Positions 7,555-61,831 of a stretch of DNA of 64,000 bases are shown here, in pieces. The stretch lies in contig OZ025784.1 of the NCBI GenBank assembly GCA_964019425.1, positions 1,612,001-1,676,000 on the forward strand, in the 5' to 3' direction. Within the stretch, counting starts at the first letter, position 1; the number at the start of each line of letters is the position of its first letter. Source of the DNA: Flectonema sp. DT1601 (Eukaryota). The notes beneath the pieces were generated by a model. The model saw nothing but the letters and a program-made list of their open reading frames with translations. It ran no database searches and was not told the origin of the DNA. The position numbers and the translations under genes were made by a program.

Positions 7555-9507
7555 ATGAATAAGTTGCTGCGATTTCGAAAACCGTACGTTGGGACCCCGT
7601 CAGCACTGCATGCGAAGATTCTAATTGACGGAAGGTTTGCCTGTTGGGTGTTTTGATTTCTGTATTCGCAATACTTCGTACTTGTGTTCCCTGACAAAGT
7701 TTCTTCTTTAACTTATTTTGTTCCTTTTTCGTCGTGAGGGCATTCGAGTGCTCGTTGTTTTCACTTTGTTGCACATCTTTGAAGAACTCGTGTGTCCTCA
7801 TCAACACACAAACAGTGTTCCTTGTTTGAAGACTATTGAGAAGTTGAATGAAAAAGGTTTTGATGGAAGTTACGACCAGGTGTTGATCTTCTTCTGTTTT
7901 AGTTCTCTTTTCTGTGAATCTCACATTGCAACCTCCGAGTGCAATGCAGCCAACTGAGTGTTGACAACCACTTCAATACCTCACTCAATCAGATTTGTCA
8001 AGCACGTAGTCTACAGCGAGCAAGAGTTGGCAGCGAGACGGCACTCGCTGATTGGAAGGTTGGTAAGTTCCCCATAAGAGATGTTTTGTGTGAGAGGAAA
8101 CCTTACGTTGGGAAGCCATCGAAGGAACATGAAAGGATTCTGATTGACAAAAGGTATTCTTTTGTTTGAATTGAAAGCACTCCTGTTGTGCAACTGGCAA
8201 TCGAATACCACAACTGAATACTAATTACAGCGTTTCGTATGCAGAGACGGGTCGTAGGTTGGATGCCATGGGATATGATGGGAATTTCAATCAGGTGTGT
8301 GTTTGTTGTAACGTGAGAATGTGTTTCTCTCATTACTCGTAGTGCCTAGTATTCGCGTTGTACTGTTGGTGTTGATTTGATGTCACACGTTGAGGAATTG
8401 ATTTGGAGTAGAGTCTGCAATGTTTCTAAATTAGTAAAACTGTTTAGCAATTCATCTTATTGCTTCTCAGCTTTGATCGATTTAAATAACTTTAATCTGA
8501 ATCAGATAACAACTGCGAGACGAAACCAGTTTGCGAGAGTTGGTATGGACGCTGACCAACGTGACAGGGAACACATCACAGTCATCTTATCGAAGAGGAA
8601 ACCTTACGTTGGGAAGCCATCGAAGGAACATGAAAGGATTCTGATTGACAAAAGGTATTCTTTTGTTTGAATTGAAAGCACTCCTGTTGTGCAACTGACA
8701 ATCGAATACCACAACTGAATACTAATTACAGCGTTTCGTATGCAGAGACGGGTCGTAGGTTGGACGCCATGGGATATGATGGGAATTACCATCAGGTGTG
8801 TGTGTGTTGTACCGTGAGTATGTAGTGTCCGCGTCATCTTTCATTACATTACAGTCATTTAAGGTATTAAAAAGACAGATAAAATACTCCCGTTTCAATC
8901 AAAGAGCATCAATCGGTAGGTCTCAGCAAGTGGGGAAGTCTCAACAGACTAATTCCCGTTGGTCTCCTTCCATCAACTTCGTTGGGAAGACGAGGGATGG
9001 CGGGGAGTACCTGGTGGTGGTTGGGACGGGGATCACGGATCTGACGAGCTGCAGGGTGGATGGAAAGACTGATGCGGCTGTGCACGTGACGGTGTGTCAG
9101 AATCTGAAAGGAGAGGACGTGGAGTTGGAGGCGGGGGAGTACACCAACTCGGTATGTGAATCCTCATAATGAATAGCATTGTGTGCACTGTGTGGTGATG
9201 TTGGAGCAGAAATGCCATCCGTGGTGTTTGCCTGAGAATAGAAAGGCAGGGCGGAGAAAACAATTCACAGCGGAGGCTGCCCTCAGGGATATTGCCGGAA
9301 GCAGGTGGGAAGTGCCGAGTGAGGATCGAAGGAGGTGTGGCGATGTTGAGGATCCCCATCGTGAAAGACGTTTTGTCTGTTCCGCAGGTGGTGGAGGTGG
9401 TTGAGGGTGTGAGGAGTTGGGAGGAGTTGCTGGAGGAAGTAGTACCAGAGGTAGTGCTGAAGGAAGAAGTGATGAAAGCATCCGTCCCTGTTGATGAGGA
9501 GTCTTGA
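7555..9507 (+). CDS. HTH-like repeat + alpha-crystallin-like protein, copy 1 (3 repeats, 8 exons, 363 aa)
   Basis: Exons 7555-7634, 7816-7879, 7993-8153, 8231-8294, 8506-8654, 8732-8795, 8879-9151 and 9271-9507 join by GT-AG into one uninterrupted ORF. Helix motifs: YDQ|ICQARS, FNQ|ITTARR, YHQ|IKYSRF. The start codon is less certain. Confidence 0.8.
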
Positions 9508-10193
9508 CAGGACACTCTGATTCCTATTTGATGAACCATCTCTCATAGTTCCCTTGTGTTGAATGTTGACCTCTTTTAGTATTACTTGAATCTTTGTTAT
9601 CAACAGGGAGTACAACATCATAATGTAAATAGTACTTGAGTAGTGAAGTAAAGGATTACAAGAATAATGATTGAGAATAGTTCTGTAGAATAACCAAAAG
9701 GTTTAAAGTCCTTTAATATCAATTTCTTAATAAATAGGAGTTCAAAGTACTTCTCAAGGGAAGAAGATGATGATGATGATGATGTATTATAAAGAAACAA
9801 TAAAATAAAATTCGATTTTGTAATAATCGTAATTGTTAGTAATGAATTGATAAATAATATATTTTTTTCAGTCAAAAAAAAGTAATGTAAATTGTTTACA
9901 GATGGCAGCTGAAGAGTGAGGAACTGATTGTTTGTTTTTTCTTCATATTTGGATTCTCTGAGTTAGTGTTATCGAGTAGCATTCTAACATCTCGTGGAAT
10001 ACAATCAGATTCCTAATTGATCGTCTCACAGCTAATTTAATGAATTGGTTCACAGATGATGACAAAAGAACAAAGCTAATTCAACTCTGTTAGAGAACTG
10101 TTGACCGCAGAGTAAGTAATCGGAGGCATTTTATGATTCTGTTCTGGTGGTGGGAAATCTAATTTCTAATTACCTTCTGCAGCATACACTGTG

Positions 10194-11677
10194 ATGAATA
10201 AGTTGCTGCGATTTCGAAAACCGTACGTTGGGACCCCGTCAGCACTGCATGCGAAGATTCTAATTGACAGAAGGTTTGCCTGTTGGGTGTTTTGATTTCT
10301 GTATTTGGAATACTTCGTACTTGTGTTCCCTGACAAAGTTTCTTCTTTAACTTATTTTGTTCCTTTTTTGTCGTGAGGGCATTCGAGTGTTCGTTGTTTT
10401 CACTTTGTTGCACATCTTTGAAGAACTTGTCTGTCCTCATCAACACACAAACAGTGTTCCTTGTTTGAAGACTATTGAGAAGTTGAATGAAAAAGGTTTT
10501 GATGGAAGTTACGACCAGGTGTTGATCTCTTCTTCTGTTTTAGTTCTCTTTTCTGTTAATCTCACATTGCAACCTCCGAGTGCAATGCAGCCAACTGAGT
10601 GTTGACAACCACTTCAATACCTCACTCAATTAGATTTGTCAAGCACGTAGTCTACAGCGAGCACCAGTTTGCACAGAGAAGACACTCGCTGATTGGAAGG
10701 TTGGTAAGTTCCCCATTGGAGATGTTTTATCTGAGAGGAAACCTTACGTTGGGAAGCCATCGAAGGAACATGAAAGGATTCTGATTGACAAAAGGTATTC
10801 TTTTGTTTGAATTGAAAGCACTCCTGTTGTGCAACTGGCAATCGAATACCACAACTGAATACTAATTACAGCGTTTCGTATGCAGAGACGGGTCGTAGGT
10901 TGGATGCCATGGGATATGATGGGAATTACCATCAGGTGTGTGTTTGTTGTACCGTAAGAATGTAGTATCCGCTTCATCTTTCATTACTCTTCCAAGTTGA
11001 AGTAGAGTTTATATGTCATTTAAGGTTTTAAAACGACAGATAAAATACTCCCGTTTCAATCAAAGAGCTTCAATCGGTATGTCTCAGCAAGTGGGGAAGT
11101 CTCAACAGACTAGTTCCCGTTGGTCTCCTTCCATCAACTTCGTTGGGAAGACGAGGGATGGCGGGGAGTACCTAGTGGTGGTTGGGACGGGGATCACGGA
11201 GCTGACGAGCTGCAGGGTGGATGGAAAGACTGATGCGGCTGTGCACGTGACGGTGTGTCAAAATCTGAAAGGAGAGGACGTGGAGTTGGAGGAGGGGGAG
11301 TACACCAACTCGGTATGTGAATCCTCATAATGAATAGCATTGTGTGCACTGTGTGGTGATGTTGGAGCAGAAATGCCATCCGTGGTGTTTGCCTGAGAAT
11401 AGAAAGGTTGGAAGAAGAAAACAATTCACAGCGGAGGCTGCCCTCAGGGATCTTGCCGGAAGCAGGTGGGAAGTGCCGAGTGAGGATCGAAGGAGGTGTG
11501 GCGATGTTGAGGATCCCCATCGTGAAAGACGTTTTGTCTGTTCCGCAGGTGGTGGAGGTGGTTGAGGGTGGGAAGGGTGTGAGGAGTTGGGAGGAGTTGC
11601 TGGAGGAAGTAGTACCAGAGGTAGTGCTGAAGGAAGAAGTGATGAAAGCATCCGTCCCTGTTGATGAGGAGTCTTGA
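10194..11677 (+). CDS. HTH-like repeat + alpha-crystallin-like protein, copy 2 (2 repeats)
   Basis: Same exon plan; variable exons start at 10634 (YDQ|ICQARS) and 11040 (YHQ|IKYSRF). Confidence 0.8.
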
Positions 11678-11988
11678 CAGGTCACTCTGATTCCTATTTG
11701 ATGAACCATCTCTCATAGTTCCCTTGTGTTGAATGTTGACCTCTTTTAGTATTACTTGAATCTTTGTTATCAACAGGGAGTACAACATCATAATGTAAAT
11801 AGTACTTGAGTAGTGAAGTAAAGGATTACAAGAATAATGATTGAGAATAGTTCTGTAGAATAACCGAAAGGTTTAAAGTTCTTTAATATCAATTTCTTAA
11901 TAAATAAGAGTTCACAGTACTTCTCAAGGGAAGAAGATGATGATGATGATGATGTATTATAAAGAAACAATAAAATAAAACAATAGAT

Positions 11989-13605
11989 ATGCAGCATACT
12001 GATATTAACATCTCTTTAGAACCGTACCGTCAAACTCTGAGTGAATTAACTTCAAGAAGGAACAAAGAGATGAAAGAAGTCATGCGATTTACTGAATACG
12101 AAAGTGAGAATACAACAAACAAAACAAATGGTAAGATGATGAAGAAGTTTAAAAGTGAAGAATGGAATCAAATTGAGAAATACTTGAAAGAGACGATGCT
12201 TCACAATACAACATACGACTATGGAGGGTTATTAAAGAACAAGAACACTAACTCGACTATCACTACCAGTAGTAAGTTAAACAGCATGCATGATAAAAAT
12301 AGACACCATCAGCAATTATCATACTTCGCAACCGGAAATGAAGTTTTTGTTTTTCCAGATAGAATGACGAGAGAAGGAGTGACGAGAGAGATTGTTAATA
12401 GGAGACTGCGATACCTTGCTGAGCAACCAAAGAAACTCTGGCCAAGAGGAAGACCAATGAATCATAAAAGTGATATTTTAGATCGAAACATCAACAAACA
12501 AGTAGCTCCTCTGTCTTCTATTCTACAGCAACGAATTGAAAGATGTAAACAGTCAAAAGATTATCAAAAAGAAGTTAGGAAACGTCATCAACAACAATTA
12601 GAATCCCGTGAGAGGAATCTTATTCAAAAACTATCAGACAAAGCTATGAAGTGTTGTAAAGATGACCTACAGCAGAAGAGATCACGATGTGAAAGCTGGT
12701 TGAAAACAATACAAAGCATCAACTCAATGGCGACCGTAAGGATTATTATCCAGTACAACAGAGCGCTGGTGGGAATCCGAGAACGTGAAGAAAAAACCGT
12801 GAGAAACGCAAGAAAGAGATTGATGGATCCGGTAACAGAAAGACGACGAGTCATGAGCAGGGAATTAATTACGAAATTAACAAGAAAAGTAAAACCAGTT
12901 CTGGGGTTGTTCAGAAATGTTAAACAACTGAATGATAGTATTAATATTGTGAAAGCATCATTTAACAACAGAGGACTATGTAAGTACAGAATTAGATTAT
13001 TTGTAAGACACGTTATATCATTACAAAGGTTCGCAAGGAGGTTACGAAGAACAAACAAAGCCAGACTCGCTCTTTTCATCGTTCAGTTTAACTCATTGGA
13101 AGCAGCAGTTCTAAAGGCTGACTCATCCCCTGGAGGAGGAGGTGGAGGAGGAGTTCTGTCTCCAGGGATACTACATTCGGTGAAAAGGAAAGTTCTTGAA
13201 TCTGAAATCACAGAACTACTGACGGTGTATAAACTTGCTTTGGGAATGTGGAAACAATGTGGTGATGTTGCTCGCAGGAACCTTCAAGAAGTTGAACATT
13301 CACTCAGAGCTCGTTTTTTGTTGGGATCTTCCAACAGCTGTGATGTGAACAACAGTCATCCTGCAATCCCTCACTTGGTCAGAATCTTACCTTCGACTAT
13401 AATGCAAGATATCATTCTTAAAGCAGCCCGAGTACAAAACGAAGTGGAGTCAAACTGGGAAGTTGACCCTCACATTAGCAAACATAACATTATAAAAGAA
13501 AGACAACAATGCATAACAAATATTTACTATTCTGAGAAGAAGAAGGAACAATTATTTCTGGAAAAGGTCGACGTGGGATTAAGGAAATATGGAAGTTCAC
13601 TTTAG
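11989..13605 (+). CDS. Basic coiled-coil protein with IQ-like motif, 538 aa, copy A
   Basis: Long ORF with VISLQRFARRLRR (IQ-like) and a Gly7 tract. An AG immediately upstream means further 5' exons are possible. Confidence 0.75.
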   Translation: MQHTDINISLEPYRQTLSELTSRRNKEMKEVMRFTEYESENTTNKTNGKMMKKFKSEEWNQIEKYLKETMLHNTTYDYGGLLKNKNTNSTITTSSKLNSMHDKNRHHQQLSYFATGNEVFVFPDRMTREGVTREIVNRRLRYLAEQPKKLWPRGRPMNHKSDILDRNINKQVAPLSSILQQRIERCKQSKDYQKEVRKRHQQQLESRERNLIQKLSDKAMKCCKDDLQQKRSRCESWLKTIQSINSMATVRIIIQYNRALVGIREREEKTVRNARKRLMDPVTERRRVMSRELITKLTRKVKPVLGLFRNVKQLNDSINIVKASFNNRGLCKYRIRLFVRHVISLQRFARRLRRTNKARLALFIVQFNSLEAAVLKADSSPGGGGGGGVLSPGILHSVKRKVLESEITELLTVYKLALGMWKQCGDVARRNLQEVEHSLRARFLLGSSNSCDVNNSHPAIPHLVRILPSTIMQDIILKAARVQNEVESNWEVDPHISKHNIIKERQQCITNIYYSEKKKEQLFLEKVDVGLRKYGSSL

Positions 13606-14045: not shown

Positions 14046-15943
14046 ATGAATAAGTTGCTGCGATTTCGAAAACCGTACGTTGGGACCCCGTCAGCACTGC
14101 ATGCGAAGATTCTAATTGACGGAAGGTTTGCCTGTTGGGTGTTTTGATTTCTGTATTCGCAATACTTCGTACTTGTGTTCCCTGACAAAGTTTCTTCTTC
14201 AAATTTATTTTGTTCCTTTTTTGTCGTGAGGGCATTCGAGTGTTCGTTGTTTTCACTTTGTTGCACATCTTTGAAGAACTTGTCTGTCCTCATCAACACA
14301 CAAACAGTGTTCCTTATTTGAAGACTATTGAGAAGTTGAATGAAAAAGGTTTTGATGGCAGTTACCACCAGGTGTTGATCTCTTCTTCTGTTTTAGTTCT
14401 CTTTTCTGTTAATCTCACATTGCAACCTCCGAGTGCAATGCAGCCAACTGAGTGTTGACAACCACTTCAATACCTCACTCAATCAGATTCATCATGCACG
14501 TAGTCTACAGCGAGCACAAGTTGGCAGCGAGAAGACACTCGCTGATTGGAAGGTTGGTAAGTTCCCCACGAAAGATGTTTTGTGTGAGAGGAAACCTTAC
14601 GTTGGGAAGCCATCGAAGGAACATGAAAGGATTCTGATTGACAAAAGGTATTCTTTTGTTTGAATTGAAAGCACTCCTGTTGTGCAACTAGCAATCGAAT
14701 ACCACAACTGAATACTAATTACAGCGTTTCGTATGCAGAGACGGGTCGTAGGTTGGATGCCATGGGATATGATGGGAATTACAATCAGGTGTGTGTCTGT
14801 ACTGTTGGTGTTGATTTGCTGTCAAACGTTGAGGAATTGATTTGGAGTAGAGTCTGCAATGTTTCTAAATTAGTAAAACTGTTTAGCAATTCATCTTATT
14901 GCTTCTCAGCTTTGAACGATTTAAATAACTTTAAACTGAATCAGATAACAACTGCGAGACAGAAACAGTTTGCGGGAGTTGGTATGTACGCACAACGAGA
15001 GTCTATCAAAATTGTCTTATCGAAGAGGAAACCTTACGTTGGGAAGCCATCGAAGGAACATGAAAGGATTCTGATTGACAAAAGGTATTCTTTTGTTTGA
15101 ATTGAAAGCACTCCTGTTGTGCAACTAGCAATCGAATACCACAACTGAATACTAATTACAGCGTTTCGTATGCAGAGACGGGTCGTAGGTTGGATGCCAT
15201 GGGATATGATGGGAATTATAATCAGGTGTGTGTTTGCTGTACCGTGGGAATGTGTTTCTTTCATTACTCTTCTTTGTTAAAGGAAACAACAACAGATACG
15301 CAAAGCTCGTTGTAATCATCTAAGAGCTCCAGTCGTTATGTCTCGACAGTCTAGTTCTCGATGTTTAGGAACTGCTGCTCGTAGTTGGTCTCCTTCCATC
15401 AACTTCGTTGGGAAGACGAGGGATGGCGGGGAGTACCTGGTGGTGGTTGGGACGGGGATCACGGAGCTGACGAGCTGCAGGGTGGATGGAAAGACTGATG
15501 CGGCTGTGCACGTGACGGTGTGTCAGAATCTGAAGGGAGAGGACGTGGAGTTGGAGGCGGGGGAGTACACCAACTCGGTATGTGAATCCTCATAATGAAT
15601 AGCATTGTGTGCACTGTGTGGTGATGTTGGAGCAGAAATGCCATCCGTGGGTGTTTGCCTGAGAATAGAAAGGTTGGAAGAAGAAAACAATTCACAGCGG
15701 AGGCTGCCCTCAGGGATCTTGCCGGAAGCAGGTGGGAAGTGCCGAGTGAGGATCGAAGGAGGTGTGGCGATGTTGAGGATCCCCATCGTGAAAGACGTTT
15801 TGTCTGTTCCGCAGGTGGTGGAGGTGGTTGAGGGTAGGAAGGGTGTGAGGAGTTGGGAGGAGTTGCTGGAGGAAGTAGTACCAGAGGTAGTGCTGAAGGA
15901 AGAAGTGATGAAAGCATCCGTCCCTGTTGATGAGGAGTCTTGA
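14046..15943 (+). CDS. HTH-like repeat + alpha-crystallin-like protein, copy 3 (3 repeats)
   Basis: Variable exons start at 14487 (YHQ|IHHARS), 14945 (YNQ|ITTARQ) and 15296 (YNQ|IRKARC); the frame is preserved. Confidence 0.8.
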
Positions 15944-16263
15944 CAGGTCACTCTGATTCCTATTTGATGAACCATCTCTCATAGTTCCCTTGTGTTGAAT
16001 GTTGACCTCTTTTAGTATTACTTGAATCTTTGTTATCAACAGGGAGTACAACATCATAATGTAAATAGTACTTGAGTAGTGAAGTAAAGGATTACAAGAA
16101 TAATGATTGAGAATAGTTCTGTAGAATAACCAAAAGGTTTAAAGTTCTTTAATATCAATTTCTTAATAAATAGGAGTTCACAGTACTTCTCAAGGGAAGA
16201 AGATGATGATGATGATGATGATGATGATGTATTATAAAGAAACAATAAAATAAAACAATAGAT

Positions 16264-17910
16264 ATGCAGCATACTGATATTAACATCTCTTTAGAACCGT
16301 ACCGTCAAACTCTGAGTGAATTAACTTCAAGAAGGAACAAAGAGATGAAAGAAGTCATGCGATTTACTGAATACGAAAGTGAGAATACAACAAACAAAAC
16401 AAATGGTAAGATGATGAAGAAGTTTAAAAGTGAAGAATGGAATCAAATTGAGAAATACTTGAAAGAGACGATGCTTCACAATACAACATACGACTATGGA
16501 GGGTTATTAAAGAACAAGAACACTAACTCGACTATCACTACCAGTAGTAAGTTAAACAGCATGCATGATAAAAATAGACACCATCAGCAATTATCATACT
16601 TCGCAACCGGAAATGAAGTTTTTGTTTTTCCAGATAGAATGACGAGAGAAGGAGTGACGAGAGAGATTGTTAATAGGAGACTGCGATACCTTGCTGAGCA
16701 ACCAAAGAAACTCTGGCCAAGAGGAAGACCAATGAATCATAAAAGTGATATTTTAGATCGAAACATCAACAAACAAGTAGCTCCTCTGTCTTCTATTCTA
16801 CAGCAACGAATTGAAAGATGTAAACAGTCAAAAGATTATCAAAAAGAAGTTAGGAAACGTCATCAACAACAATTAGAATCCCGTGAGAGGAATCTTATTC
16901 AAAAACTATCAGACAAAGTTATGAAGTGTTGTAAAGATGACCTACAGCAGAAGAGATCACGATGTGAAAGCTGGTTGAAAACAATACAAAGCATCAACTC
17001 AATGGCGACAGTAAGGATTATTATCCAGTACAACAGAGCGCTGGTGGGAATCCGAGAACGTGAAGAAAAAACCGTGAGAAACGCAAGAAAGAGATTGATG
17101 GATCCGGTAACAGAAAGACGACGAGTCATGAGCAGGGAATTAATTACGAAATTAACAAGAAAAGTAAAACCAGTTCTGGGGTTGTTCAGAAATGTTAAAC
17201 AACTGAATGATAGTATTAATATTGTGAAAGCATCATTTAACAACAGAGGACTATGTAAGTACAGAATTAGATTATTTGTAAGACACGTTATATCATTACA
17301 AAGGTTCGCAAGGAGGTTACGAAGAACAAACAAAGCCAGACTCGCTCTTTTCATCGTTCAGTTTAACTCATTGGAAGCAGCAGTTCTAAAGGCTGACTCA
17401 TCCCCTGGAGGAGGAGGTGGAGGAGGAGGAGGAGGTGGAGGAGGAGGTGGAGGAGGAGTTCTGTCTCCAGGGATACTACATTCGGTGAAAAGGAAAGTTC
17501 TTGAATCTGAAATCACAGAACTACTGACGGTGTATAAACTTGCTTTGGGAATGTGGAAACAATGTGGTGATGTTGCTCGCAGGAACCTTCAAGAAGTTGA
17601 ACATTCGCTCAGAGCTCGTTTTTTGTTGGGATCTTCCAACAGCTGTGATGTGAACAACAGTCATCCTGCAATCCCTCACTTGGTCAGAATCTTACCTTCG
17701 ACTATAATGCAAGATATCATTCTTAAAGCAGCCCGAGTACAAAACGAAGTGGAGTCAAACTGGGAAGTTGACCCTCACATTAGCAAACATAACATTATAA
17801 AAGAAAGACAACAATGCATAACAAATATTTACTATTCTGAGAAGAAGAAGGAACAATTATTTCTGGAAAAGGTCGACGTGGGATTAAGGAAATATGGAAG
17901 TTCACTTTAG
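16264..17910 (+). CDS. Coiled-coil/IQ-like protein, copy B (548 aa, Gly17)
   Basis: Nearly identical to 11989-13605, with a 10-codon poly-Gly expansion. Confidence 0.75.
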   Translation: MQHTDINISLEPYRQTLSELTSRRNKEMKEVMRFTEYESENTTNKTNGKMMKKFKSEEWNQIEKYLKETMLHNTTYDYGGLLKNKNTNSTITTSSKLNSMHDKNRHHQQLSYFATGNEVFVFPDRMTREGVTREIVNRRLRYLAEQPKKLWPRGRPMNHKSDILDRNINKQVAPLSSILQQRIERCKQSKDYQKEVRKRHQQQLESRERNLIQKLSDKVMKCCKDDLQQKRSRCESWLKTIQSINSMATVRIIIQYNRALVGIREREEKTVRNARKRLMDPVTERRRVMSRELITKLTRKVKPVLGLFRNVKQLNDSINIVKASFNNRGLCKYRIRLFVRHVISLQRFARRLRRTNKARLALFIVQFNSLEAAVLKADSSPGGGGGGGGGGGGGGGGGVLSPGILHSVKRKVLESEITELLTVYKLALGMWKQCGDVARRNLQEVEHSLRARFLLGSSNSCDVNNSHPAIPHLVRILPSTIMQDIILKAARVQNEVESNWEVDPHISKHNIIKERQQCITNIYYSEKKKEQLFLEKVDVGLRKYGSSL

Positions 17911-18347: not shown

Positions 18348-19807
18348 ATGAATAAGTTGCTGCGATTTCGAAAACCGTACGTTGGGACCCCGTCAGCACT
18401 GCATGCGAAGATTCTAATTGACAGAAGGTTTGCCTGTTGGGTGTTTTGATTTCTGTATTTGCAATACTTCGTACTTGTGTTCCCTGACAAAGTTTTTTCT
18501 TCAAATTTATTTTGTTCCTTTTTTGTCGTGAGGGCATTCGAGTGTTGGTTGTTTTCACTTTGTTGCACATCTTTGAAGAACTTGTCTGTCCTCATCAACA
18601 CACAAACAGTGTTCCTTATTTGAAGACTATTGAGAAGTTGGGTGAAAAAGGTTTTGATGGCAGTTACCACCAGGTGTTGATCTCTTCTTCTGTTTTAGTT
18701 CTCTTTTCTGTGAATCTCACATTGCAACCTCCGAGTGCAATGCAGCCAACTGAGTGTTGACAACCACTTCAATACCTCACTCAATCAGATTCTTAAGGCA
18801 CGTAGTCTACAGCGAGCACCAGTTGGCACAGAGAAGGCACTCGCTGATTGGAAGGTTGGTAAGTTCCCCATAAGAGAAGTTTTGTCTGAGAGGAAACCTT
18901 ACGTTGGGAAGCCATCGAAGGAACATGAAAGGATTCTGATTGACAAAAGGTATTCTTTTGATTGAATTGAAAGCACTCCTGTTGTGCAACTGGCAATCGA
19001 ATACCACAACTGAATACTAATTACAGTGTTTCGATTGCAGAGACGGGTCGTAGGTTGGATGCCATGGGATATGATGGGAATTACAATCAGGTGTGTGTTT
19101 GTTGTACCGTGAGAAGGTAGTGTGTGTGTCATGTTTCATTACTCTTCTTTGTTGAGGAAATAACGACAGATAAGAAATTGTCGTTTTAATCAAAGGGTCG
19201 GTATGTCTCGACAGACTAATTCTCGATGTTCAGGAACTGCTACTCGTAGTTGGTCTCCTTCCATCAACTTCGTTGGGAAAACGAGAGATGGCGGGGAGTA
19301 CCTGGTGGTGGTTGGGACGGGGATCACGGATCTGAAGAGCTGCAGGGTGGATGGAAAGACTGATGCGGCTGTGCACGTGACGGTGTGTCAGAATCTGAAG
19401 GGAGAGGACGTGGAGTTGGAGGAGGGGGAGTACACCAACTCGGTATGTGAATCCTCATAATGAATAGCATTGTGTGCACTGCGTGGTGATGTTGGAGCAG
19501 AAATGCCATCCGTGGTGTTTGCCTGAGAATAGAAAGGTAGAATCAAGAAAACAATTCACAGCGGAGGCTGCCCTCAGGGATCTTGCCGGAAGCAGGTGGG
19601 AAGTGCCGAGTGAGGATCGAAGGAGGTGTGGCGATGTTGAGGATCCCCATCGTGAAAGACGTTTTATCTGTTCCGCAGGTGGTGGAGGTGGTTGAGGGTG
19701 GGAAGGGTGTGAGGAGTTGGGAGGAGTTGCTGGAGGAAGTAGTACCAGAGGTAGTGCTGAAGGAAGAAGTGATGAAAGCATCCGTCCCTGTTGATGAGGA
19801 GTCTTGA
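18348..19807 (+). CDS. HTH-like repeat + alpha-crystallin-like protein, copy 4 (2 repeats)
   Basis: Variable exons start at 18789 (YHQ|ILKARS) and 19170 (YNQ|IRNCRF). Confidence 0.8.
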
Positions 19808-20112
19808 CAGGACACTCTGATTCCTATTTGATGAACCATCTCTCATAGTTCCCTTGTGTTGAATGTTGACCTCTTTTAGTATTACTTGAATCTTTGTTAT
19901 CAACAGGGAGTACAACATCATAATGTAAATAGTACTTGAGTAGTGATGTAAAGGATTACAAGAATAATGATTGAGAATAGTTCTGTAGAATAACCAAAAG
20001 GTTTAAAGTTCTTTAATATCAATTTCTTAATAAATAGGAGTTCAAAGTACTTCTCAAGGGAAGATGATAATGATGATGTATTATAAAGAAACAATAAAAT
20101 AAAACAATAGAT

Positions 20113-21729
20113 ATGCAGCATACTGATATTAACATCTCTTTAGAACCGTACCGTCAAACTCTGAGTGAATTAACTTCAAGAAGGAACAAAGAGATGAAAG
20201 AAGTCATGCGATTTACTGAATACGAAAGTGAGAATACAACAAACACAACAAATGGTAAGATGATGAAGAAGTTTAAAAGTGAAGAATGGAATCAAATTGA
20301 GAAATACTTGAAAGAGACGATGCTTCACAATACAACATACGACTATGGAGGGTTATTAAAGAACAAGAACACTAACTCGACTATCACTACCAGTAGTAAG
20401 TTAAACAGCATGCATGATAAAAACAGACACCATCAGCAATTATCATACTTCGCAACCGGAAATGAAGTTTTCGTTTTTCCAGATAGAATGACGAGAGAAG
20501 GAGTGACGAGAGAGATTGTTAATAGGAGACTGCGATACCTTGCTGAGCAACCAAAGAAACTCTGGCCAAGAGGAAGACCAATGAATCATAAAAGTGATAT
20601 TTTAGATCGAAACATCAACAAACAAGTAGCTCCTCTGTCTTCTATTCTACAGCAACGAATTGAAAGATGTAAACAGTCAAAAGATTATCAAAAAGAAGTT
20701 AGGAAACGTCATCAACAACAATTAGAATCCCGTGAGAGGAATCTTATTCAAAAACTATCAGACAAAGTTATGAAGTGTTGTAAAGATGACCTACAGCAGA
20801 AGAGATCACGATGTGAAAGCTGGTTGAAAACAATACAAAGCATCAACTCAATGGCGACAGTAAGGATTATTATCCAGTACAACAGAGCGCTGGTGGGAAT
20901 CCGAGAACGTGAAGAAAAAACCGTGAGAAACGCAAGAAAGAGATTGATGGATCCGGTAACAGAAAGACGACGAGTCATGAGCAGGGAATTAATTACGAAA
21001 TTAACAAGAAAAGTAAAACCAGTTCTGGGGTTGTTCAGAAATGTTAAACAACTGAATGATAGTATTAATATTGTGAAAGCATCATTTAACAACAGAGGAC
21101 TATGTAAGTACAGAATTAGATTATTTGTAAGACACGTTATATCATTACAAAGGTTCGCAAGGAGGTTACGAAGAACAAACAAAGCCAGACTCGCTCTTTT
21201 CATCGTTCAGTTTAACTCATTGGAAGCAGCAGTTCTAAAGGCTGACTCATCCCCTGGAGGAGGAGGTGGAGGAGGAGTTCTGTCTCCAGGGATACTACAT
21301 TCGGTGAAAAGGAAAGTTCTTGAATCTGAAATCACAGAACTACTGACGGTGTATAAACTTGCTTTGGGAATGTGGAAACAATGTGGTGATGTTGCTCGCA
21401 GGAACCTTCAAGAAGTTGAACATTCACTCAGAGCTCGTTTTTTGTTGGGATCTTCCAACAGCTGTGATGTGAACAACAGTCATCCTGCAATCCCTCACTT
21501 GGTCAGAATCTTACCTTCGACTATAATGCAAGATATCATTCTTAAAGCAGCCCGAGTACAAAACGAAGTGGAGTCAAACTGGGAAGTTGACCCTCACATT
21601 AGCAAACATAACATTATAAAAGAAAGACAACAATGCATAACAAATATTTACTATTCTGAGAAGAAGAAGGAACAATTATTTCTGGAAAAGGTCGACGTGG
21701 GATTAAGGAAATATGGAAGTTCACTTTAG
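20113..21729 (+). CDS. Coiled-coil/IQ-like protein, copy C (538 aa)
   Basis: About two amino-acid differences from copy A. Confidence 0.75.
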   Translation: MQHTDINISLEPYRQTLSELTSRRNKEMKEVMRFTEYESENTTNTTNGKMMKKFKSEEWNQIEKYLKETMLHNTTYDYGGLLKNKNTNSTITTSSKLNSMHDKNRHHQQLSYFATGNEVFVFPDRMTREGVTREIVNRRLRYLAEQPKKLWPRGRPMNHKSDILDRNINKQVAPLSSILQQRIERCKQSKDYQKEVRKRHQQQLESRERNLIQKLSDKVMKCCKDDLQQKRSRCESWLKTIQSINSMATVRIIIQYNRALVGIREREEKTVRNARKRLMDPVTERRRVMSRELITKLTRKVKPVLGLFRNVKQLNDSINIVKASFNNRGLCKYRIRLFVRHVISLQRFARRLRRTNKARLALFIVQFNSLEAAVLKADSSPGGGGGGGVLSPGILHSVKRKVLESEITELLTVYKLALGMWKQCGDVARRNLQEVEHSLRARFLLGSSNSCDVNNSHPAIPHLVRILPSTIMQDIILKAARVQNEVESNWEVDPHISKHNIIKERQQCITNIYYSEKKKEQLFLEKVDVGLRKYGSSL

Positions 21730-22165: not shown

Positions 22166-23621
22166 ATGAATAAGTTGCTGCGATTTAGAAAACCGTACGT
22201 TGGGACCCCGTCAGCACTGCATGCGAAAATTCTAATTGACAGAAGGTTTGCCTGTTGGGTGTTTTGATTTCTGTATTTGCAATACTTCGTACTTGTGTTC
22301 CCTGACAAAGTTTCTTCTTTAACTTTTTTTGTTCCCTTTTTTGTCGTGAGGGCATTCGAGTGTTGGTTGTTTTCACTTTGTTGCACATCTTTGAAGAACT
22401 TATCTGTCCTCATCAACACACAAACAGTGTTCCTTATTTGAAGACTATTGAGAAGTTGAATGAAAAAGGTTTTGATGGCAGTTACGACCAGGTGTTGATC
22501 TCTTCTTCTGTTTTAGTTCTCTTTTCTGTGAATCTCACATTGCAACCTCCGAGTGCAATGCAGCCAACTGAGTGTTGACAACCACTTCAATACCTCACTC
22601 AATTAGATTCAACAAGCACGTAGGCTGCAGCGAGCAGTAGTTGGCACAGAGAAAACAGTCGCTGATTGGAAGGTTGGTAAGTTCCATGCAAGAGATGTTT
22701 TGTTTGAGAGGAAAGGTTACGTTGGGAAGCCATCGAAGGAACATGAAAGGATTCTGATTGACAAAAGGTATTCTTTTGTTTGAATTGAAAGCACTCCTGT
22801 TGTGCAACTGGCAATCGAATACCACAACTGAATACTAATTACAGCGTTTCGATTGCAGAGACGGGTCGTAGGTTGGATGCCATGGGATATGATGGGAATT
22901 ACCATCAGGTTTGTGTTTGCTGTAGTGAGAATGTGTTGTCAGTTTCATCTTTCATCAGTGTGGTAATTAATCACAGATTCACAAAGCTCGTTGTAATCAA
23001 AGAGCTCCAGTCGGTATGTCCCAACAGACTAATACTCGATGTTCAGGAACTGCTACTCGTAGTTGGTCTCCTTCCATCAACTTCGTTGGGAAGACGAGGG
23101 ATGGCGGGGAGTACCTGGTGGTAGTTGGAACGGGGAACACGGATCTGACGAGCTGCAGGGTGGATGGAAAGACTGATGCGGCTGTGCACGTGACGGTGTG
23201 TCAGAATCTGAAGGGAGAGGACGTGGAGTTGGAGGCGGGGGAGTACACCAACTCGGTATGTGAATCCTCATAATGAATAGCATTGTGTGCACTGTGTGGT
23301 GATGTTGGCGCAGAAATGCCATCCGTGGGTGTTTGCCTGAGAATAGAAAGGCAGGAAGAAGAAAACAATTCACAGCGGAGGCTGCCCTCAGGGATCTTGC
23401 CGGTAGCAGGTGGGAAGTGCCGAGTGAGGATCGAAGGAGGTGTGGCGATGTTGAGGATTCCCATCGTGAAAGACGTTTTGTCTGTTCCGCAGGTGGTGGA
23501 GGTGGTTGAGGGTGGGAAGGGTGTGAGGAGTTGGGAGGAGTTGCTGGAAGAAGTAGTACCAGAGGTAGTGCTGAAGGAAGAAGTGATGAAAGCATCCGTC
23601 CCTGTTAATGAGGAGTCTTGA
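22166..23621 (+). CDS. HTH-like repeat + alpha-crystallin-like protein, copy 5 (2 repeats)
   Basis: Variable exons start at 22607 (YDQ|IQQARR) and 22977 (YHQ|IHKARC). Confidence 0.8.
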
Positions 23622-24576: not shown

Positions 24577-27140
24577 ATGAATAAATTATTAAGATTTCGA
24601 AAACCGTACGTTGGGACCCCGTCAGCACTGCATGCGAAGATTCTAATTGACAGAAGGTTTGCCTGTTGGGTGTTTTGATTTCTGTATTTGGAATACTTCG
24701 TACTTGTGTTCTCTGACAAAGTTTCTTCTTTAACTTATTTTATTTCCTTTTTTGTCGTGAGGGCATTCGAGTGTTCGTTGTTTTCACTTTGTTGCACATC
24801 TTTGAAGAACTTGTCTGTCCCCATCAACACACAAACAGTGTTCCTTATTTGAAGACTATTGAGAAGTTGAATGAAAAAGGTTTTGATGGCAGTTACAACC
24901 AGGTGTTGATCTCTTCTTCTGTTTTAGTTCTCTTTTCTGTGAATCTCACATTGCAACCTCCGAGTGCAATGCAGCCAACTGAGTGTTGACAACCACTTCA
25001 ATACCTCACTCAATCAGATTTGTCAAGCACGTAGTCTACAGCGAACACCGGTTGGCACAGAGAAGACACTCGCTGATTGGAAGGTTGGTAAGTTCCCCAC
25101 AAAAGATGTTTTATCTGAGAGGAAACCTTACGTTGGGAAGCCATCGAAGGAACATGAAAGGATTCTGATTGACAAAAGGTATTTTGTTTGAATTGAAAGC
25201 ACTCCTGTTGTGCAACTGGCAATCGAATACCACAACTGAATACTAATTACAGCGTTTCGATTGCAGAGACGGGTCGTAGGTTGGATGCCATGGGATATGA
25301 TGGGAATTACAATCAGGTGTGTGTCTGTACTGTTGGTGTTGATTTGATGTCACACGTTGAGGAATTGATTTGGAGTAGAGTCTGCAATGTTTCTAAATTA
25401 GTAAAACTGTTTAGCAATTCATCTTATTGCTTCTCAGCTTTGATCGATTTAAATAACTTTAAACTGAAGCAGATAATGACTGCGAGAGAAAACCAGTTTG
25501 CGGGAGTTGGTATGGACGCTGATCAACGTGACAGGGAACCCATCACAGTCATCTTATCGAAGAGGAAACCTTACGTTGGGAAGCCATCGAAGGAACATGA
25601 AAGGATTCTGATTGACAAAAGGTATTCTTTTGATTGAATTGAAAGCACTCCTGTTGTGCAACTGGCAATCGAATACCACAACTGAATACTAATTACAGCG
25701 TTTCGTATGCAGAAACGGGTCGTAGGTTGGATGCCATGGGATATGATGGGAATTACAATCAGGTGTGTGTCTGTACTGTTGGTGTTGAGTTGATGTCACA
25801 CGTTGAGGAATTGATTTGGAGTAGAGTCTGCAATGTTTCTAAATTAGTAAAACTGTTTAGCAATTCATCTTATTGCTTCTCAGCTTTGATCGATTTAAAT
25901 AGGAAATTTCCCCGTTGCTACTCCAAAACTTTATTTTTCTCCGTTGTAGTCCACCTATAAGGATTTTTCTCCGTTGTGTTTTCTTTTCTTTTCTTTTTTT
26001 GCTGTTGTGTGCACAACAGCGAGAAAACTAAAAGAGTTGTTCACAATAGCGAAAAATCTTCTTGGGTGTAGGCAACGGAGAAAAAGCTTTTTTTTAATGT
26101 AGGCAACTGAGAATTCTCCATCTAAATAACTTTGAACTGAATCAGATAACAACTGCGAGACAAAACAAGTTTGCGCGAGTTGGTATGGATGCACAACGAG
26201 AATCTATCAAAGTTGTGTTATCGAAGAGGAAACCTTACGTTGGGAAGCCATCGAAGGAACATGAAAGGATTCTGATTGACAAAAGGTATTCTTTTGATTG
26301 AATTGAAAGCACTCCAGTTGTGCAACTGGCAATCGAATACCACAACTGAATACTAATTACAGCGTTTCGTATGCAGAGACGGGTCGTAGGTTGGATGCCA
26401 TGGGATATGATGGGAATTACCATCAGGTGTGTGTTTGCTGTACCGTGGGAATGTGTTTCTTTCATTACTCTCCTTAGTTGAGGAAACAACGACAGATACA
26501 CAAAGCTCGTTCTAATCAAAGGGCACTTGTCGGTATGTCTCGACAGTCTAGTTGTCGATGTTCAGGAACTGCTACTCGTAGTTGGTCTCCTTCCATCAAC
26601 TTCGTTGGGAAGACGAGGGATGGCGGGGAGTACCTGGTGGTGGTTGGGACGGGGATCACGGATCTGACGAGCTGCAGGGTGGATGGAAAGACTGATGCGG
26701 CTGTGCACGTGACGGTGTGTCAGAATCTGAAGGGAGAGGACGTGGAGTTGGAGGCGGGGGAGTACACCAACTCGGTATGTGAATCCTCATAATGAATAGC
26801 ATTGTGTGCACTGTGTGGTGATGTTGGCGCAGAAATGCCATCCGTGGGTGTTTGCCTGAGAATAGAAAGGTTGGAAGAAGAAAACAATTCACAGCGGAGG
26901 CTGCCCTCAGGGATCTTGCCGGAAGCAGGTGGGAAGTGCCGAGTGAGGATCGAAGGAGGTGTGGCGATGTTGAGGATCCCCATCGTGAAAGACGTTTTGT
27001 CTGTTCCGCAGGTGGTGGAGGTGGTTGAGGGTGGGAAGGGTGTGAGGAGTTGGGAGGAGTTGCTGGAGGAAGTAGTACCAGAGGTAGTGCTGAAGGAAGA
27101 AGTGATGAAAGCATCCGTCCCTGTTGATGAGGAGTCTTGA
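24577..27140 (+). CDS. HTH-like repeat + alpha-crystallin-like protein, copy 6 (4 repeats)
   Basis: Variable exons start at 25018 (YNQ|ICQARS), 25473 (YNQ|IMTARE), 26146 (YNQ|ITTARQ) and 26496 (YHQ|IHKARS). A MITE lies in one intron. Confidence 0.8.
25902..26119. mobile_element. 218-bp MITE with ~17-bp TIRs and 9-bp TSD (Mutator-like)
   Basis: Absent from the paralogous introns (near 8480, 14920, 25450). Ends GGAAATTTCCCCGTTGC / GCAACTGAGAATTCTCC; flanks ATTTAAATA / ATCTAAATA. Confidence 0.8.
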
Positions 27141-27454
27141 CAGGACACTCTGATTCCTATTTGATGAACCATCTCTCATAGTTCCCTTGTGTTGAATGTT
27201 GACCTCTTTTAGTATTACTTGAATCTTTGTTATCAACAGGGAGTACAACATCATAATGTAAATAGTACTTGAGTAGTGAAGTAAAGGATTACAAGAATAA
27301 TGATTGAGAATAGTTCTGTAGAATAACCAAAAGGTTTAAAGTTCTTTAATATCAATTTCTTAATAAATAGGAGTTCAAAGTACTTCTCAAGGGAAGAAGA
27401 TGATGATGATGATGATGATGTATTATAAAGAAACAATAAAATAAAACAATAGAT

Positions 27455-28874
27455 ATGCAGCATACTGATATTAACATCTCTTTAGAACCGTACCGTCAAA
27501 CTCTGAGTGAAGAACACCAACTCGACTATCACTACCAGTAGTAAGTTAAACAGCATGCATGATAAAAACAGACACCATCAGCAATTATCATACTTCGCAA
27601 CCGGAAATGAAGTTTTCGTTTTTCCAGATAGAATGACGAGAGAAGGAGTGACGAGAGAGATTGTTAATAGGAGACTACGATACCTTGCTGAGCAACCAAA
27701 GAAACTCTGGCCAAGAGGAAGACCAATGAATCATAAAAGTGATATTTTAGATCGAAACATCAACAAACAAGTAGCTCCTCTGTCTTCTATTCTACAGCAA
27801 CGAATTGAAAGATGTAAACAGTCAAAAGATTATCAAAAAGAAGTTAGGAAACGTCATCAACAACAATTAGAATCCCGTGAGAGGAATCTTATTCAAAAAC
27901 TATCAGACAAAGCTATGAAGTGTTGTAAAGATGACCTACAGCAGAAGAGATCACGATGTGAAAGCTGGTTGAAAACAATACAAAGCATCAACTCAATGGC
28001 GACCGTAAGGATTATTATCCAGTACAACAGAGCGCTGGTGGGAATCCGAGAACGTGAAGAAAAAACTGTGAGAAACGCAAGAAAGAGATTGATGGATCCG
28101 GTAACAGAAAGACGACGAGTCATGAGCAGGGAATTAATTACGAAGTTAACAAGAAAAGTAAAACCAGTTCTAGGGTTGTTCAGAAATGTTAAACAACTGA
28201 ATGATAGTATTAATATTGTGAAAGCATCATTTAACAACAGAGGACTATGTAAGTACAGAATTAGATTATTTGTAAGACACGTTATATCATTACAAAGGTT
28301 CGCAAGGAGGTTACGAAGAACAAACAAAGCCAGACTCGCTCTTTTCATCGTTCAGTTTAACTCATTGGAAGCAGCAGTTCTAAAGGCTGACTCATCCCCT
28401 GGAGGAGGAGGTGGAGGAGGAGTTCTGTCTCCAGGGATACTACATTCGGTGAAAAGGAAAGTTCTTGAATCTGAAATCACAGAACTACTGACGGTGTATA
28501 AACTTGCTTTGGGAATGTGGAAACAATGTGGTGATGTTGCTCGCAGGAACCTTCAAGAAGTTGAACATTCACTCAGAGCTCGTTTTTTGTTGGGATCTTC
28601 CAACAGCTGTGATGTGAACAACAGTCATCCTGCAATCCCTCACTTGGTCAGAATCTTACCTTCGACTATAATGCAAGATATCATTCTTAAAGCAGCCCGA
28701 GTACAAAACGAAGTGGAGTCAAACTGGGAAGTTGACCCTCACATTAGCAAACATAACATTATAAAAGAAAGACAACAATGCATAACAAATATTTACTATT
28801 CTGAGAAGAAGAAGGAACAATTATTTCTGGAAAAGGTCGACGTGGGATTAAGGAAATATGGAAGTTCACTTTAG
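27455..28874 (+). pseudogene. Coiled-coil/IQ-like gene copy D with a 197-bp frameshifting 5' deletion
   Basis: The ATG at 27455 reads MQHTDINISLEPYRQTLSE, then shifts frame and stops early. The span is 1420 bp versus 1617 bp; the rest of the ORF is intact. Confidence 0.7.
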
Positions 28875-29311
28875 TGAGAACCCACAAAGATGTTTTTATT
28901 CTCCTTCTTTCAGACTTTCTTATTTACACCTATTTTGTAATAATCGTAATTGTTAGTAATGAATTGATAAATAATATATTTTTTTTTCAGTCAGAAAAAG
29001 TAATGTAAATTGTTTACAGATGGCAGCTGAAGAGTGAGGAACTGATTGTTTGTTTTTTCTTCATATTTGGATTCTCTGAGTTAGTGTTATCGAGTAGCAT
29101 TCTAACATCTCGTGGAATACAATCAGATTCCTAATTGATCGTCTCACAGCTAATTTAATGAATTGGTTCACAGATGATGACAAAAGAACAAAGCTAATTT
29201 AACTCTGTTAGAGAACTGTTGACCGCAGAGTAAGTAATCGGAGGCATTTTATGATTCTGTTCTGGTTGTGGGAAATCTAATTTCTAATTACCTTCTGCAG
29301 CACACACTGTG

Positions 29312-30773
29312 ATGAATAAGTTGCTGCGATTTCGAAAACCGTACGTTGGGACCCCGTCAGCACTGCATGCGAAGATTCTAATTGACAGAAGGTTTGCCTG
29401 TTGGGTGTTTTGATTTCTGTATTTGGAATACTTCGTACTTGTGTTCCCTGACAAAGTTTCTTCTTTAACTTTATTTGTTCCCTTTTTCTTGTGAGGGCAT
29501 TCGAGTGTTCGTTGTTTTCACTTTGTTGCACATCTTTGAAGAACTTGTCTGTCCTCATCAACACACAAACAGTGTTCCTTGTTTGAAGACTATTGAGAAG
29601 TTGAATGAAAAAGGTTTTGATGGCAGTTGCGACCAGGTGTTGATCTCTTCTTCTGTTTTAGTTCTCTTTTCTGTGAATCTCACTTTACAACCTCCGAGTG
29701 CAATGCAGCCACTGAGTGTTGACAACCACTTCAATACCTCACTCAATTAGATTCGTCACGCACGTAGTCTACAGCGAGCACCAGTTGGCAAAAAGAAGAC
29801 ACTCGCTGATTGGAAGGTTGGTAAGTTCCCCATAAGAGATGTTTTATCTGAGAGGAAACGTTACGTTGGGAAGCCATCGAAGGAACATGAAAGGATTCTG
29901 ATTGACAAAAGGTATTCTTTTGTTTGAATTGAAAGCACTCCTGTTGTGCAACTGGCAATCGAATACCACAACTGAATACTAATTACAGCGTTTCGTATGC
30001 AGAGACGGGTCGTAGGTTGGATGCCATGGGATATGATGGGAATTACCATCAGGTGTGTATTTGCTGTAGTGAGAATGTAGTGTCTGTGTCTTGTTTCACT
30101 ACTCTTCTTAGTTGAAGGAAATAACGACAGATAAGAAATTGTCGTTTCGATCAAAGAGCTGCTATCAGTTTGTCTCGACAGTCTAGTTCTCGATGTTCAG
30201 GAACTGCTACTCGTAGTTGGTCTCCTTCCATCAGCTTCGTTGGGAAGACGAGGGATGGCGGGGAGTACCTGGTGGTGGTTGGGACGGGGATCACGGATCT
30301 GAAGAGCTGCAGGGTGGATGGAAAGACTGATGCGGCTGTGCACGTGACGGTGTGTCAGAATCTGAAGGGAGAGGACGTGGAGTTGGAGGAGGGGGAGTAC
30401 ACCAACTCGGTATGTGAATCCTCATAATGAATAGCATTGTGTGCACTTGGTGGTGATGTTGGAGCAGAAATGCCATCCGTGGTGTTGCTTGAGGAAAGAA
30501 AGGTAGGAAGAAGAAAACAATTCACAGCGGAGGCTGCCCTCAGGGATCTTGCCGGAAGCAGGTGGGAAGTGCCGAGTGAGGATCGAAGGAGGTGTGGTGA
30601 TGTTGAGGATCCCCATCGTGAAAGACGTTTTGTCTGTTCCGCAGGTGGTGGAGGTGGTTGAGGGTGCGAAGGGTGTGAGGAGTTGGGAGGAGTTGCTGGA
30701 GGAAGTAGTACCAGAGGTAGTGCTGAAGGAAGAAGTGATGAAAGCATCCGTCCCTGTTGATGAGGAGTCTTGA
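29312..30773 (+). CDS. HTH-like repeat + alpha-crystallin-like protein, copy 7 (2 repeats)
   Basis: Variable exons start at 29751 (CDQ|IRHARS) and 30131 (YHQ|IRNCRF). Confidence 0.8.
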
Positions 30774-42643: not shown

Positions 42644-42675
<32 letters not shown>

Positions 42676-45984: not shown

Positions 45985-46023
<39 letters not shown>

Positions 46024-51617: not shown

Positions 51618-51660
<43 letters not shown>

Positions 51661-61714: not shown

Positions 61715-61831
61715 TTAGCGACTACAAATATTCTTTTCAGTCATGTACTTGATATTAGTTTTATATTTATACGTAAAGTTGTTACTGTTTTTATATTGTC
61801 CCAGTTACACCCCCCTCAACTACATCTAAAG

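Follow-up and report, generated by a model that had tools for sequence, protein, structure and literature searches.

Seven tandem genes of predicted three-helix modules with divergent third-helix cassettes in the diplonemid Flectonema sp. DT1601: an apparently lineage-specific, likely DNA-binding family

The gene array and its exon structure

The stretch of DNA considered here, called the window below, comprises 64,000 nucleotides (nt) of the diplonemid Flectonema sp. DT1601 (assembly GCA_964019425.1, contig OZ025784.1, positions 1,612,001 to 1,676,000, forward strand); all positions given are those of the window. It contains an array of seven tandem genes on the + strand, spanning 7555-30773 (Table 1), in which a sequence-only reading had noticed 18 copies of the short motif x-Q-I-x-x-[A/S/C]-R-x and proposed that its variable residues form the base-reading face of a DNA recognition helix. 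A single exon model with GT-AG introns gives complete open reading frames (ORFs), from ATG to stop, in all seven genes, with products of 295-436 amino acids (aa). The units of the array are spaced by about 2.2-4.7 kb, and direct-repeat analysis revealed many 300-nt stretches that are 90-100% identical.

Each gene is built of two to four modules, 18 in total. The module has about 70 aa and consists, in order, of a basic RKPYVG arm, helix 1, helix 2, helix 3, and a linker of 15-21 aa. The first exon of every gene is 80 nt long. Every module has one 64-nt exon in phase 1, whose last residues are [D/N/H]-Q and whose 3' edge is CAG directly before GT; the exon that follows opens, after AG, with I-x-x-[A/S/C]-R and continues uninterrupted into RKPYVGKPSKEHERILIDK of the next module. 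This following exon lies no more than 260 nt from its 64-nt exon in 17 of 18 cases, and the eighteenth (starting at 26146) is located behind a 383-nt intron. The C-terminal part after the last I-x-x-[A/S/C]-R exon stops at TCG, directly before GTATGT, and after a last intron of 118-120 nt the final exon closes at a conserved stop. The position of this intron is defined by indels between the copies, which are 1 nt long and frame-shifting inside the intron and 9 nt long in the exon. All seven proteins have a basic module part (isoelectric point, pI, 9.8-10.3; net charge +12 to +22) and, behind it, a conserved acidic C-terminal part of about 145 aa (pI 4.6-4.8).

Table 1. Features of the array; the first position given for each gene is that of its ATG
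Feature	Position	Strand	Parts or equivalents	Remark
Gene 1, 3 modules, 363 aa	7555..9507	+	exons 7555-7634, 7816-7879, 7993-8153, 8231-8294, 8506-8654, 8732-8795, 8879-9151, 9271-9507	open frame from ATG to stop
Gene 2, 2 modules, 295 aa	10194..11677	+	exons 10194-10273, 10455-10518, 10634-10794, 10872-10935, 11040-11312, 11432-11677	
Gene 3, 3 modules, 366 aa	14046..15943	+	exons 14046-14125, 14308-14371, 14487-14647, 14725-14788, 14945-15084, 15162-15225, 15296-15577, 15698-15943	
Gene 4, 2 modules, 295 aa	18348..19807	+	exons 18348-18427, 18610-18673, 18789-18949, 19027-19090, 19170-19442, 19562-19807	
Gene 5, 2 modules, 297 aa	22166..23621	+	exons 22166-22245, 22428-22491, 22607-22767, 22845-22908, 22977-23255, 23376-23621	
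Gene 6, 4 modules, 436 aa	24577..27140	+	exons 24577-24656, 24839-24902, 25018-25178, 25253-25316, 25473-25621, 25699-25762, 26146-26285, 26363-26426, 26496-26774, 26895-27140	
Gene 7, 2 modules, 297 aa	29312..30773	+	exons 29312-29391, 29573-29636, 29751-29911, 29989-30052, 30131-30409, 30528-30773	
First-module variable island, gene 1 (helix 3 and linker, 34 codons)	7993..8094	+	equivalents start at 10634, 14487, 18789, 22607, 25018, 29751	
Last-module variable island, gene 1 (intron before helix 3, helix 3 and linker)	8796..8960	+	equivalent helix-3 starts 11040, 15296, 19170, 22977, 26496, 30131	
Homogenised scaffold unit (59-nt helix-1 exon part, 77-nt intron, 64-nt helix-2 exon)	8095..8294	+		eleven near-identical copies
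64-nt exon starts of the eleven scaffold units	8231, 8732, 10872, 14725, 15162, 19027, 22845, 25253, 25699, 26363, 29989	+		
Internal-module helix 3, gene 1	8506..8546	+	other internal helix-3 starts 14945, 25473, 26146	

Three further observations concern the genes themselves. The 156-nt intron before the internal helix 3 of genes 3 and 6 (14789-14944 and 25317-25472) is a multiple of three in length with an open frame, so that read-through ORFs of 143 and 146 aa exist. About 12 nt upstream of the ATG, a pyrimidine-rich stretch with CTGCAG at its end is common to six of the seven genes (7525-7554 and equivalents); in a euglenozoan it would make a suitable spliced-leader acceptor. Gene 6 differs from the other genes in its upstream sequence and carries several synonymous changes in its first codons.

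The 18 motifs and their variability

The exon model reproduces each of the 18 motifs exactly as the sequence-only reading had listed them, given its splicing. The pattern.QI..[ASC]R is found 15 times on the + strand in the array and three times elsewhere in the window, all six frames considered; the repeats are paralogous copies and not a chance pattern. The glutamine, isoleucine and arginine are indeed invariant in all 18 copies, and the central di-residue does take the 11 reported states (CQ, TT, KY, HH, RK, LK, RN, QQ, HK, MT and RH), with eight different residues at position 2 and six at position 3 when the invariant isoleucine is numbered 1. Besides the invariant arginine, every one of the 18 third helices has at least one Arg or Lys among positions 2-13.

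The claim that the di-residue varies even among positionally equivalent repeats was borne out as well. The first modules of genes 1-7 read CQ, CQ, HH, LK, QQ, CQ and RH (five states among seven), the four internal modules TT, TT, MT and TT (two states), and the seven last modules KY, KY, RK, RN, HK, HK and RN (four states). The accompanying claim, of a 64-nt exon and an intron of about 77 nt before it that remain almost unchanged, stands for the 11 non-first modules, whereas in the seven first modules the intron measures 181-182 nt and the 64-nt exon is homologous but different. In the non-first modules the intron is 77 nt long in 10 copies and 74 nt in one, and an alignment of the scaffold (the helix-1 exon part, intron and 64-nt exon of the 11 copies) has only 24 variable columns of 215, six of which are indel columns.

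Relatives and confirmation of the splice junctions

A HMMER scan of 1.84 billion representative proteins with a read-through ORF of the window as the query gave six matches. Four of them are true relatives (P0004, P0005, P0007 and P0008), all of which are ORFs of Trinity transcripts of the diplonemid Flectonema neradi from EukProt. The other two, P0006 and P0009, were rejected: they are repeat proteins unrelated to the family, their similarity lies mostly in the part of the query translated from introns, and they are devoid of the family motifs. In P0004, P0007 and P0008 the three exon parts of the module are contiguous and joined precisely where predicted, which confirms the splice junctions of the modules in the window; introns are retained in P0005 and at the end of P0008. 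Since the relatives are transcripts, the family is expressed in Flectonema neradi. Its helices retain Q, I and R and carry five additional di-residues, and the multi-module layout is already present in P0004.

The family appears lineage-restricted, because the other diplonemid transcriptomes among the proteins scanned yielded no relative. A word-index protein search with the last exon gave no match, and ESM Atlas gave no usable match for one module. A metagenome scan with the exon alignment found one locus, which encodes a bacterial iron-sulfur protein; the YVGKPSKE word that it has in common with the family was taken as chance, and the locus was rejected. There is also no published description of this family among the titles and abstract openings listed for diplonemid tandem DNA-binding genes or Flectonema.

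Predicted fold and comparison with known DNA-binding modules

The structural data consist of an AlphaFold2 model, made for the relative P0004 and not for a window protein, from a shallow alignment of 17 rows (relatives and window exons). Its mean predicted local distance difference test score (pLDDT) is 70, with block means of 80-90 over the modules (approximately residues 31-80 and 101-150); a single-sequence model of P0004 reached a pLDDT of 49 and was left out of the fold search. The model has helices at residues 45-52, 58-67 and 74-89, and the equivalent pattern is seen in the second module. The supposition that the motif lies in a helix agrees with it: helix 3 of the three-helix module (74-89) begins three residues ahead of the invariant Ile and spans the entire motif.

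The wide structural search gave Z-scores of 3.5-4.7 among the 50 matches listed, none of them reaching 5, and by the search tool's own note such values may reflect merely a common small helical arrangement. Most of these 50 matches are DNA-binding domains of the homeodomain-like fold, matched weakly (Z) over 43-56 residues of one module with a root-mean-square deviation of 1.7-3.5, and most cover residues 39-91 or 110-162 of the model. The DNA-binding matches listed include GT-1, SNAPc4, MATalpha2, engrailed, HOX, TRF1, Tbf1, Reb1, Tc3, c-Myb, R2R3-MYB, RAD, ARR1 and Zeste; other classes among them are SANT, telomere-Myb, GARP and trihelix. In Foldseek the best match was weak, the bipartite DNA-binding domain of Tc3 transposase (1u78_A, E 0.21), with Pax6, Mos1 and sigma factors lower. 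Judged from the model, the module is likely a member of the homeodomain-like fold.

Among the known systems, Myb/SANT repeats such as c-Myb R2R3 and plant R2R3-MYB share with the family, as predicted from the model, the tandem three-helix modules, a core of about 50 aa, and helix 3 as the recognition helix, and c-Myb (1h89_C, 1mbg), R2R3-MYB (6kks), RAD, TRF1, Tbf1, Reb1 and tvMyb3 were matched with Z-scores of 3.5-4.1. However, the Myb/SANT Pfam profile gave no match, at E-values up to 10, to the window exon translations or to the four relatives. Myb repeats are defined by three regularly spaced Trp or other aromatic core residues, one per helix. This triad is missing here: the 11 non-first modules have no Trp, and by the c-Myb range alignment the position of the helix-3 Trp is that of the invariant Arg. 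The window modules differ also in their long linkers and in their near-identical DNA, introns included. A SHAQKYF-type single Myb repeat, an early candidate, was dropped as it found no profile support.

Homeodomains resemble the modules in the predicted three-helix fold and the N-terminal basic arm, with MATalpha2, engrailed, HOX, HNF1 and DUX4 matched at Z-scores of 3.5-4.2, and the i, i+3, i+4, i+7 spacing of the variable sites resembles that of positions 47, 50, 51 and 54 of homeodomain helix 3. The homeodomain helix 3 is marked by a conserved Trp-Phe-x-Asn signature. The window modules, in contrast, read Q-I-x-x-[ASC]-R with no counterpart of it, occur several per protein, and have no Pfam homeobox match (four relatives). 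The bipartite helix-turn-helix (HTH) domains of Tc1/mariner transposases and Pax paired proteins resemble the predicted module arrangement in their two or more small HTH units with a basic linker between them, and Tc3 was also found at Z 4.0 (neither this score nor its Foldseek E-value being significant), whereas the window family has neither a transposase catalytic domain nor a Pfam HTH match.

The sequence-only reading had likened the variable positions to those of C2H2 fingers. The module is not a zinc finger: no Cys2His2 pattern is present in the modules and no Pfam zinc-finger match was found. The likeness to KRAB zinc-finger clusters is limited to tandem paralogues with a conserved scaffold and variable DNA-contacting residues, predicted as such here; the zinc ligands are absent, and there is no evidence of transposon targets.

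Variable sites on helix 3

The most variable positions of the helix, -2, 2, 3 and 6, fall within a 100-degree arc, and Q-1, I1, A4, R5 and Q8 are on the opposite side of the helical wheel. Residues 143-191 of the c-Myb chain 1h89_C align with residues 39-87 of the P0004 model over equal spans, at 22% identity. If there are no internal shifts, the invariant Ile is equivalent to residue 181 of c-Myb repeat 3 (R3), position -2 to 179, the di-residue to 182 and 183, and position 6 to 186; this equivalence was taken from the range ends and not from a printed alignment. According to the accessible text of PMC2673439, Lys182 and Asn183 of c-Myb are key base contacts and Asn186 forms hydrogen bonds with thymines, and Asn179 and Asn183 are given among the base-contacting residues in the accessible text of PMC4613820. 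The proposal that the variable sites occupy positions like those that contact bases is supported in this respect: because the ranges align with equal spans, the sites fall on 179, 182, 183 and 186.

Divergence pattern and selection tests

Variability in the array is concentrated in islands. When the seven first-module regions are aligned, helix 3 (12 codons) has a nucleotide diversity (pi) of 0.136 and the linker one of 0.110, compared with 0.014 for the intron before the island, 0.013 for the helix-1 part after it, and 0.007 for the next intron. Pairwise differences between genes are 1.6-4.6% in the 5' flank, 6.9-17.6% in the first-module island, 0.5-3.5% in the scaffold units, 8.9-37.3% in the last-module island, and 0.6-2.7% in the C-terminal part and 3' end. 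The helix-3 islands are 5-20 times as divergent as their flanks. The last-module cassettes form two deep lineages, genes 1-2 and genes 3-7, which are 29-37% apart.

The modules of one gene are about 99% identical in scaffold and intron; compared between the species, scaffolds of the non-first type have 73-88% identity, and helix 3 averages only 34-45%. The sharing of the scaffold within genes, together with the multi-module layout of P0004, suggests that gene conversion or unequal crossing-over has homogenised the array, and speaks against a very recent origin. The variable number of modules fits unequal exchange.

Selection was analysed by counting and with codon models in our own implementation, the first island being represented by seven sequences of 34 codons and the null check by 16 simulations. 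By counting, the ratio of nonsynonymous to synonymous substitution (dN/dS, omega in the models) is 1.46 for helix 3 and 0.84 for the linker of the first-module island. Model M0 gave an omega of 1.48, and the comparison of M2a with M1a a likelihood-ratio test statistic (LRT) of 16.5 (p 0.00026), with an omega of 6.9 for 29% of sites and posterior probabilities above 0.95 at codons 2, 3, 11, 14, 28 and 29. With proportional branch lengths the LRT was 16.4, and none of the 16 null simulations reached the observed value (maximum 9.5).

Proposed interpretation and rival explanations

The reading that we favour, and to which we give somewhat better than an even chance, is that each of the 18 motifs marks where the third helix of a three-helix module begins, with 18 such modules in seven intact tandem genes, and that the modules, by prediction, are Myb/homeodomain-like DNA-binding units whose third helix would read DNA. 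In evolutionary terms, the best-supported account is that of a lineage-specific, multi-module, homeodomain/Myb-like family, likely DNA-binding, which evolves in concert while divergent helix-3/linker cassettes are retained. It is proposed that gene conversion and unequal crossing-over within the near-identical scaffolds and introns homogenise the array and alter the number of modules (2, 3 or 4), and that the helix-3/linker cassettes would be kept divergent, most likely since different cassettes confer different binding specificities. Three observations suggest this last step: the fold matches, the charge of the proteins, and variable sites that fall where Myb contacts bases. The helix positions that vary most would then correspond to those with which c-Myb repeat 3 contacts bases. 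The proteins would form a small, fast-evolving, lineage-specific family of putative sequence-specific DNA binders, each copy likely having its own DNA target through differences in helix 3 and the linker. The acidic tails allow a guess at a transcription-factor-like role.

Several results weigh against this reading, in addition to the limits already given for the fold model, the Z-scores and the c-Myb equivalence. At E-values up to 10, no relevant Pfam family was found for single exons, read-through ORFs or the four relatives, and the PDB sequence search gave no true match by single sequence (phmmer) and none by profile; the sole phmmer match, a DyP peroxidase (E 0.65), was taken as chance. 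Foldseek found no match to the P0004 model in the PDB at E <= 0.001. The helical placement of the variability, which the sequence-only reading had confined to one face, holds only in part: the variability moment of 0.36-0.43 over 12 positions is not significant (permutation p 0.13-0.17), and position 11 and linker positions 14, 28 and 29 are as variable as -2, 2, 3 and 6. As for selection, the whole first island has a dN/dS of 1.03, and its synonymous divergence, 0.127, is about ten times the intron diversity. Ten of its 15 informative site pairs failed the four-gamete test. Recombination and unmodelled synonymous-rate variation are known sources of false positives in site tests of the M2a/M1a type, and with so many failing pairs the site-model result for the first island may be a false positive. 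In the last-module island no positively selected class was found (M0 omega 0.51, LRT 0.02), 62% of sites being near an omega of 1; this island takes in the intron before helix 3, which is there as variable as the exon. Because the synonymous sites of the first island and the intron of the last one are also highly variable, the islands look old or unhomogenised and not simply driven by selection on amino acids. The diversifying selection claimed earlier is thus found by the site model in the first, heavily recombined, island and not in the last one, and at the di-residue it is suggested by the sequences, not demonstrated.

Many of these results are those expected if constraint on the protein is simply weakest in helix 3 and the linker, the islands escaping a conversion that is blocked once they have diverged, with no specificity code involved. 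The first-island ratio near 1, the omega and the near-neutral sites of the last island, an island intron and synonymous sites that vary as much as replacement sites, the variable linker and the lack of significant helical periodicity all suit such a relaxation of constraint. We nevertheless consider it rather unlikely. Q, I, R and the A/S/C at position 4 are kept in 18 copies and in the other species, which means that helix 3 is constrained and that the changes fall between these sites. Furthermore, the most variable sites coincide, by alignment range, with those through which c-Myb R3 contacts bases, the first island tests positive under M2a, and the frames are intact in all seven genes. The nature of the ligand is the second debatable issue, as SANT-like or other three-helix units might bind protein or RNA, and the variable face would then recognise such a partner and not DNA. 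The structural matches include SANT domains and Cdc5-type Myb-like domains of the spliceosome (2m2e, 6tuy, 3jb9, 6jui), no DNA-binding family includes these proteins by sequence, and transcription factors are considered to play a small part in the gene control of the lineage (available part of preprint 10.64898/2026.07.29.740908). However, the strongly basic module part, with a pI of about 10, the additional Arg or Lys in every third helix, and structural matches that are mostly DNA-bound domains make this explanation quite improbable.

It might also be considered that the islands arise from a local mutational process, i.e., targeted hypermutation or templated diversification of the helix-3/linker region. 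The switch in the first modules is sharp, since diversity rises from the 113-115-nt intron (pi 0.014) to the first 12 codons past the splice site (pi 0.136), and synonymous sites are raised too; yet nothing in the window was seen to serve such a process as a donor cassette, a template repeat or an enzyme gene, the last-module island begins within the intron and not at the exon edge, and the two deep last-cassette lineages resemble old alleles and not fresh mutations, so that we hold this to be extremely unlikely. Just as improbable is an artefact in which a collapsed or chimeric assembly of the repetitive array produced a false mosaic of copies. Although the long stretches of 96-100% identity are hard to assemble, open frames and splice sites are kept in all seven copies, the differences cluster at codons that are likewise variable in the independent transcriptome of another species, and errors of assembly would have hit Q, I and R as well.

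If the preferred reading of DNA-binding modules is correct, a stronger version of it can be formulated, namely a modular DNA-reading code, in which the helix-3 positions -2, 2, 3 and 6 would determine the short DNA word that a module of about 70 aa reads, and recombination in the homogenised exons and introns of the scaffold would shuffle the helix-3 cassettes among the tandem paralogues and change the number of modules. We regard this version as improbable. If true, it would give this diplonemid lineage rapidly re-programmable DNA binders, a eukaryotic counterpart of TALE-like repeat codes. TALE repeats serve here as an analogy in the manner of working only: in them, too, tandem modules are almost the same except, for the most part, at two neighbouring residues, whereas the window modules differ from them in fold and repeat length, number only two to four per protein, and vary at other helix and linker positions, and a reading of one base per module would be hypothetical for them. 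The arms race with mobile DNA that had been suggested as the cause of the variability is supported by no result here.

Significance

Diplonemids are among the most abundant marine heterotrophic protists. According to the available part of a preprint (10.64898/2026.07.29.740908), their relatives are thought to regulate mostly post-transcriptionally and to have few transcription factors; only DNA-binding domains known to Pfam were counted there, and by its own statement lineage-specific factors would be missed. A family of likely DNA binders that is restricted to one lineage, evolves fast and has no match in Pfam would belong to exactly this overlooked class. The array also offers a clear example from nature of concerted evolution sparing a short functional cassette, and if the variable residues set specificity, the near-identical scaffold would offer a compact platform on which HTH recognition could be studied and engineered.

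Surroundings of the array

Between genes 2/3, 3/4, 4/5 and 6/7 lies an intronless ORF of 455-553 aa (11974-13605, 16249-17910, 20098-21729 and 27507-28874, + strand), the copies of which are 99-100% identical over 300-nt stretches and are part of the duplicated unit. No Pfam family was found for it, and ESM Atlas gave weak leads to IQ-motif proteins (best score 0.93, an unnamed cluster). Directly after the array, a 764-aa open frame with no Pfam family is present (31107-33401, +). Further downstream are two alpha-galactosidase ORFs (52183-53370 and 61715-63001, +; Melibiase_2, E about 1e-103), the first of which is 90% identical to that of Flectonema neradi and 64-69% identical to those of Diplonema japonicum, D. 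ambulator and Rhynchopus humris, and an ORF with BspA-type leucine-rich repeats (55112-56644, +), which includes a tandem repeat of 9.9 copies of 75 nt (55784-56529). The identities of the alpha-galactosidase place the window in a diplonemid close to Flectonema. Several pure A or T runs of 25-48 nt occur in intergenic stretches of about 30% G+C (41969-46018 and 51399-51657).

The ORFs with a Pfam match at or above the curated cut-off are all on the + strand of the window, which fits the co-directional gene clusters described for the group in the available part of preprint 10.64898/2026.07.29.740908. The GC skew is strongly positive (0.10-0.27) across 8001-32000 and about zero elsewhere in the window. 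It probably reflects purine-rich coding on the + strand, and it also accounts for the many long antisense open frames.

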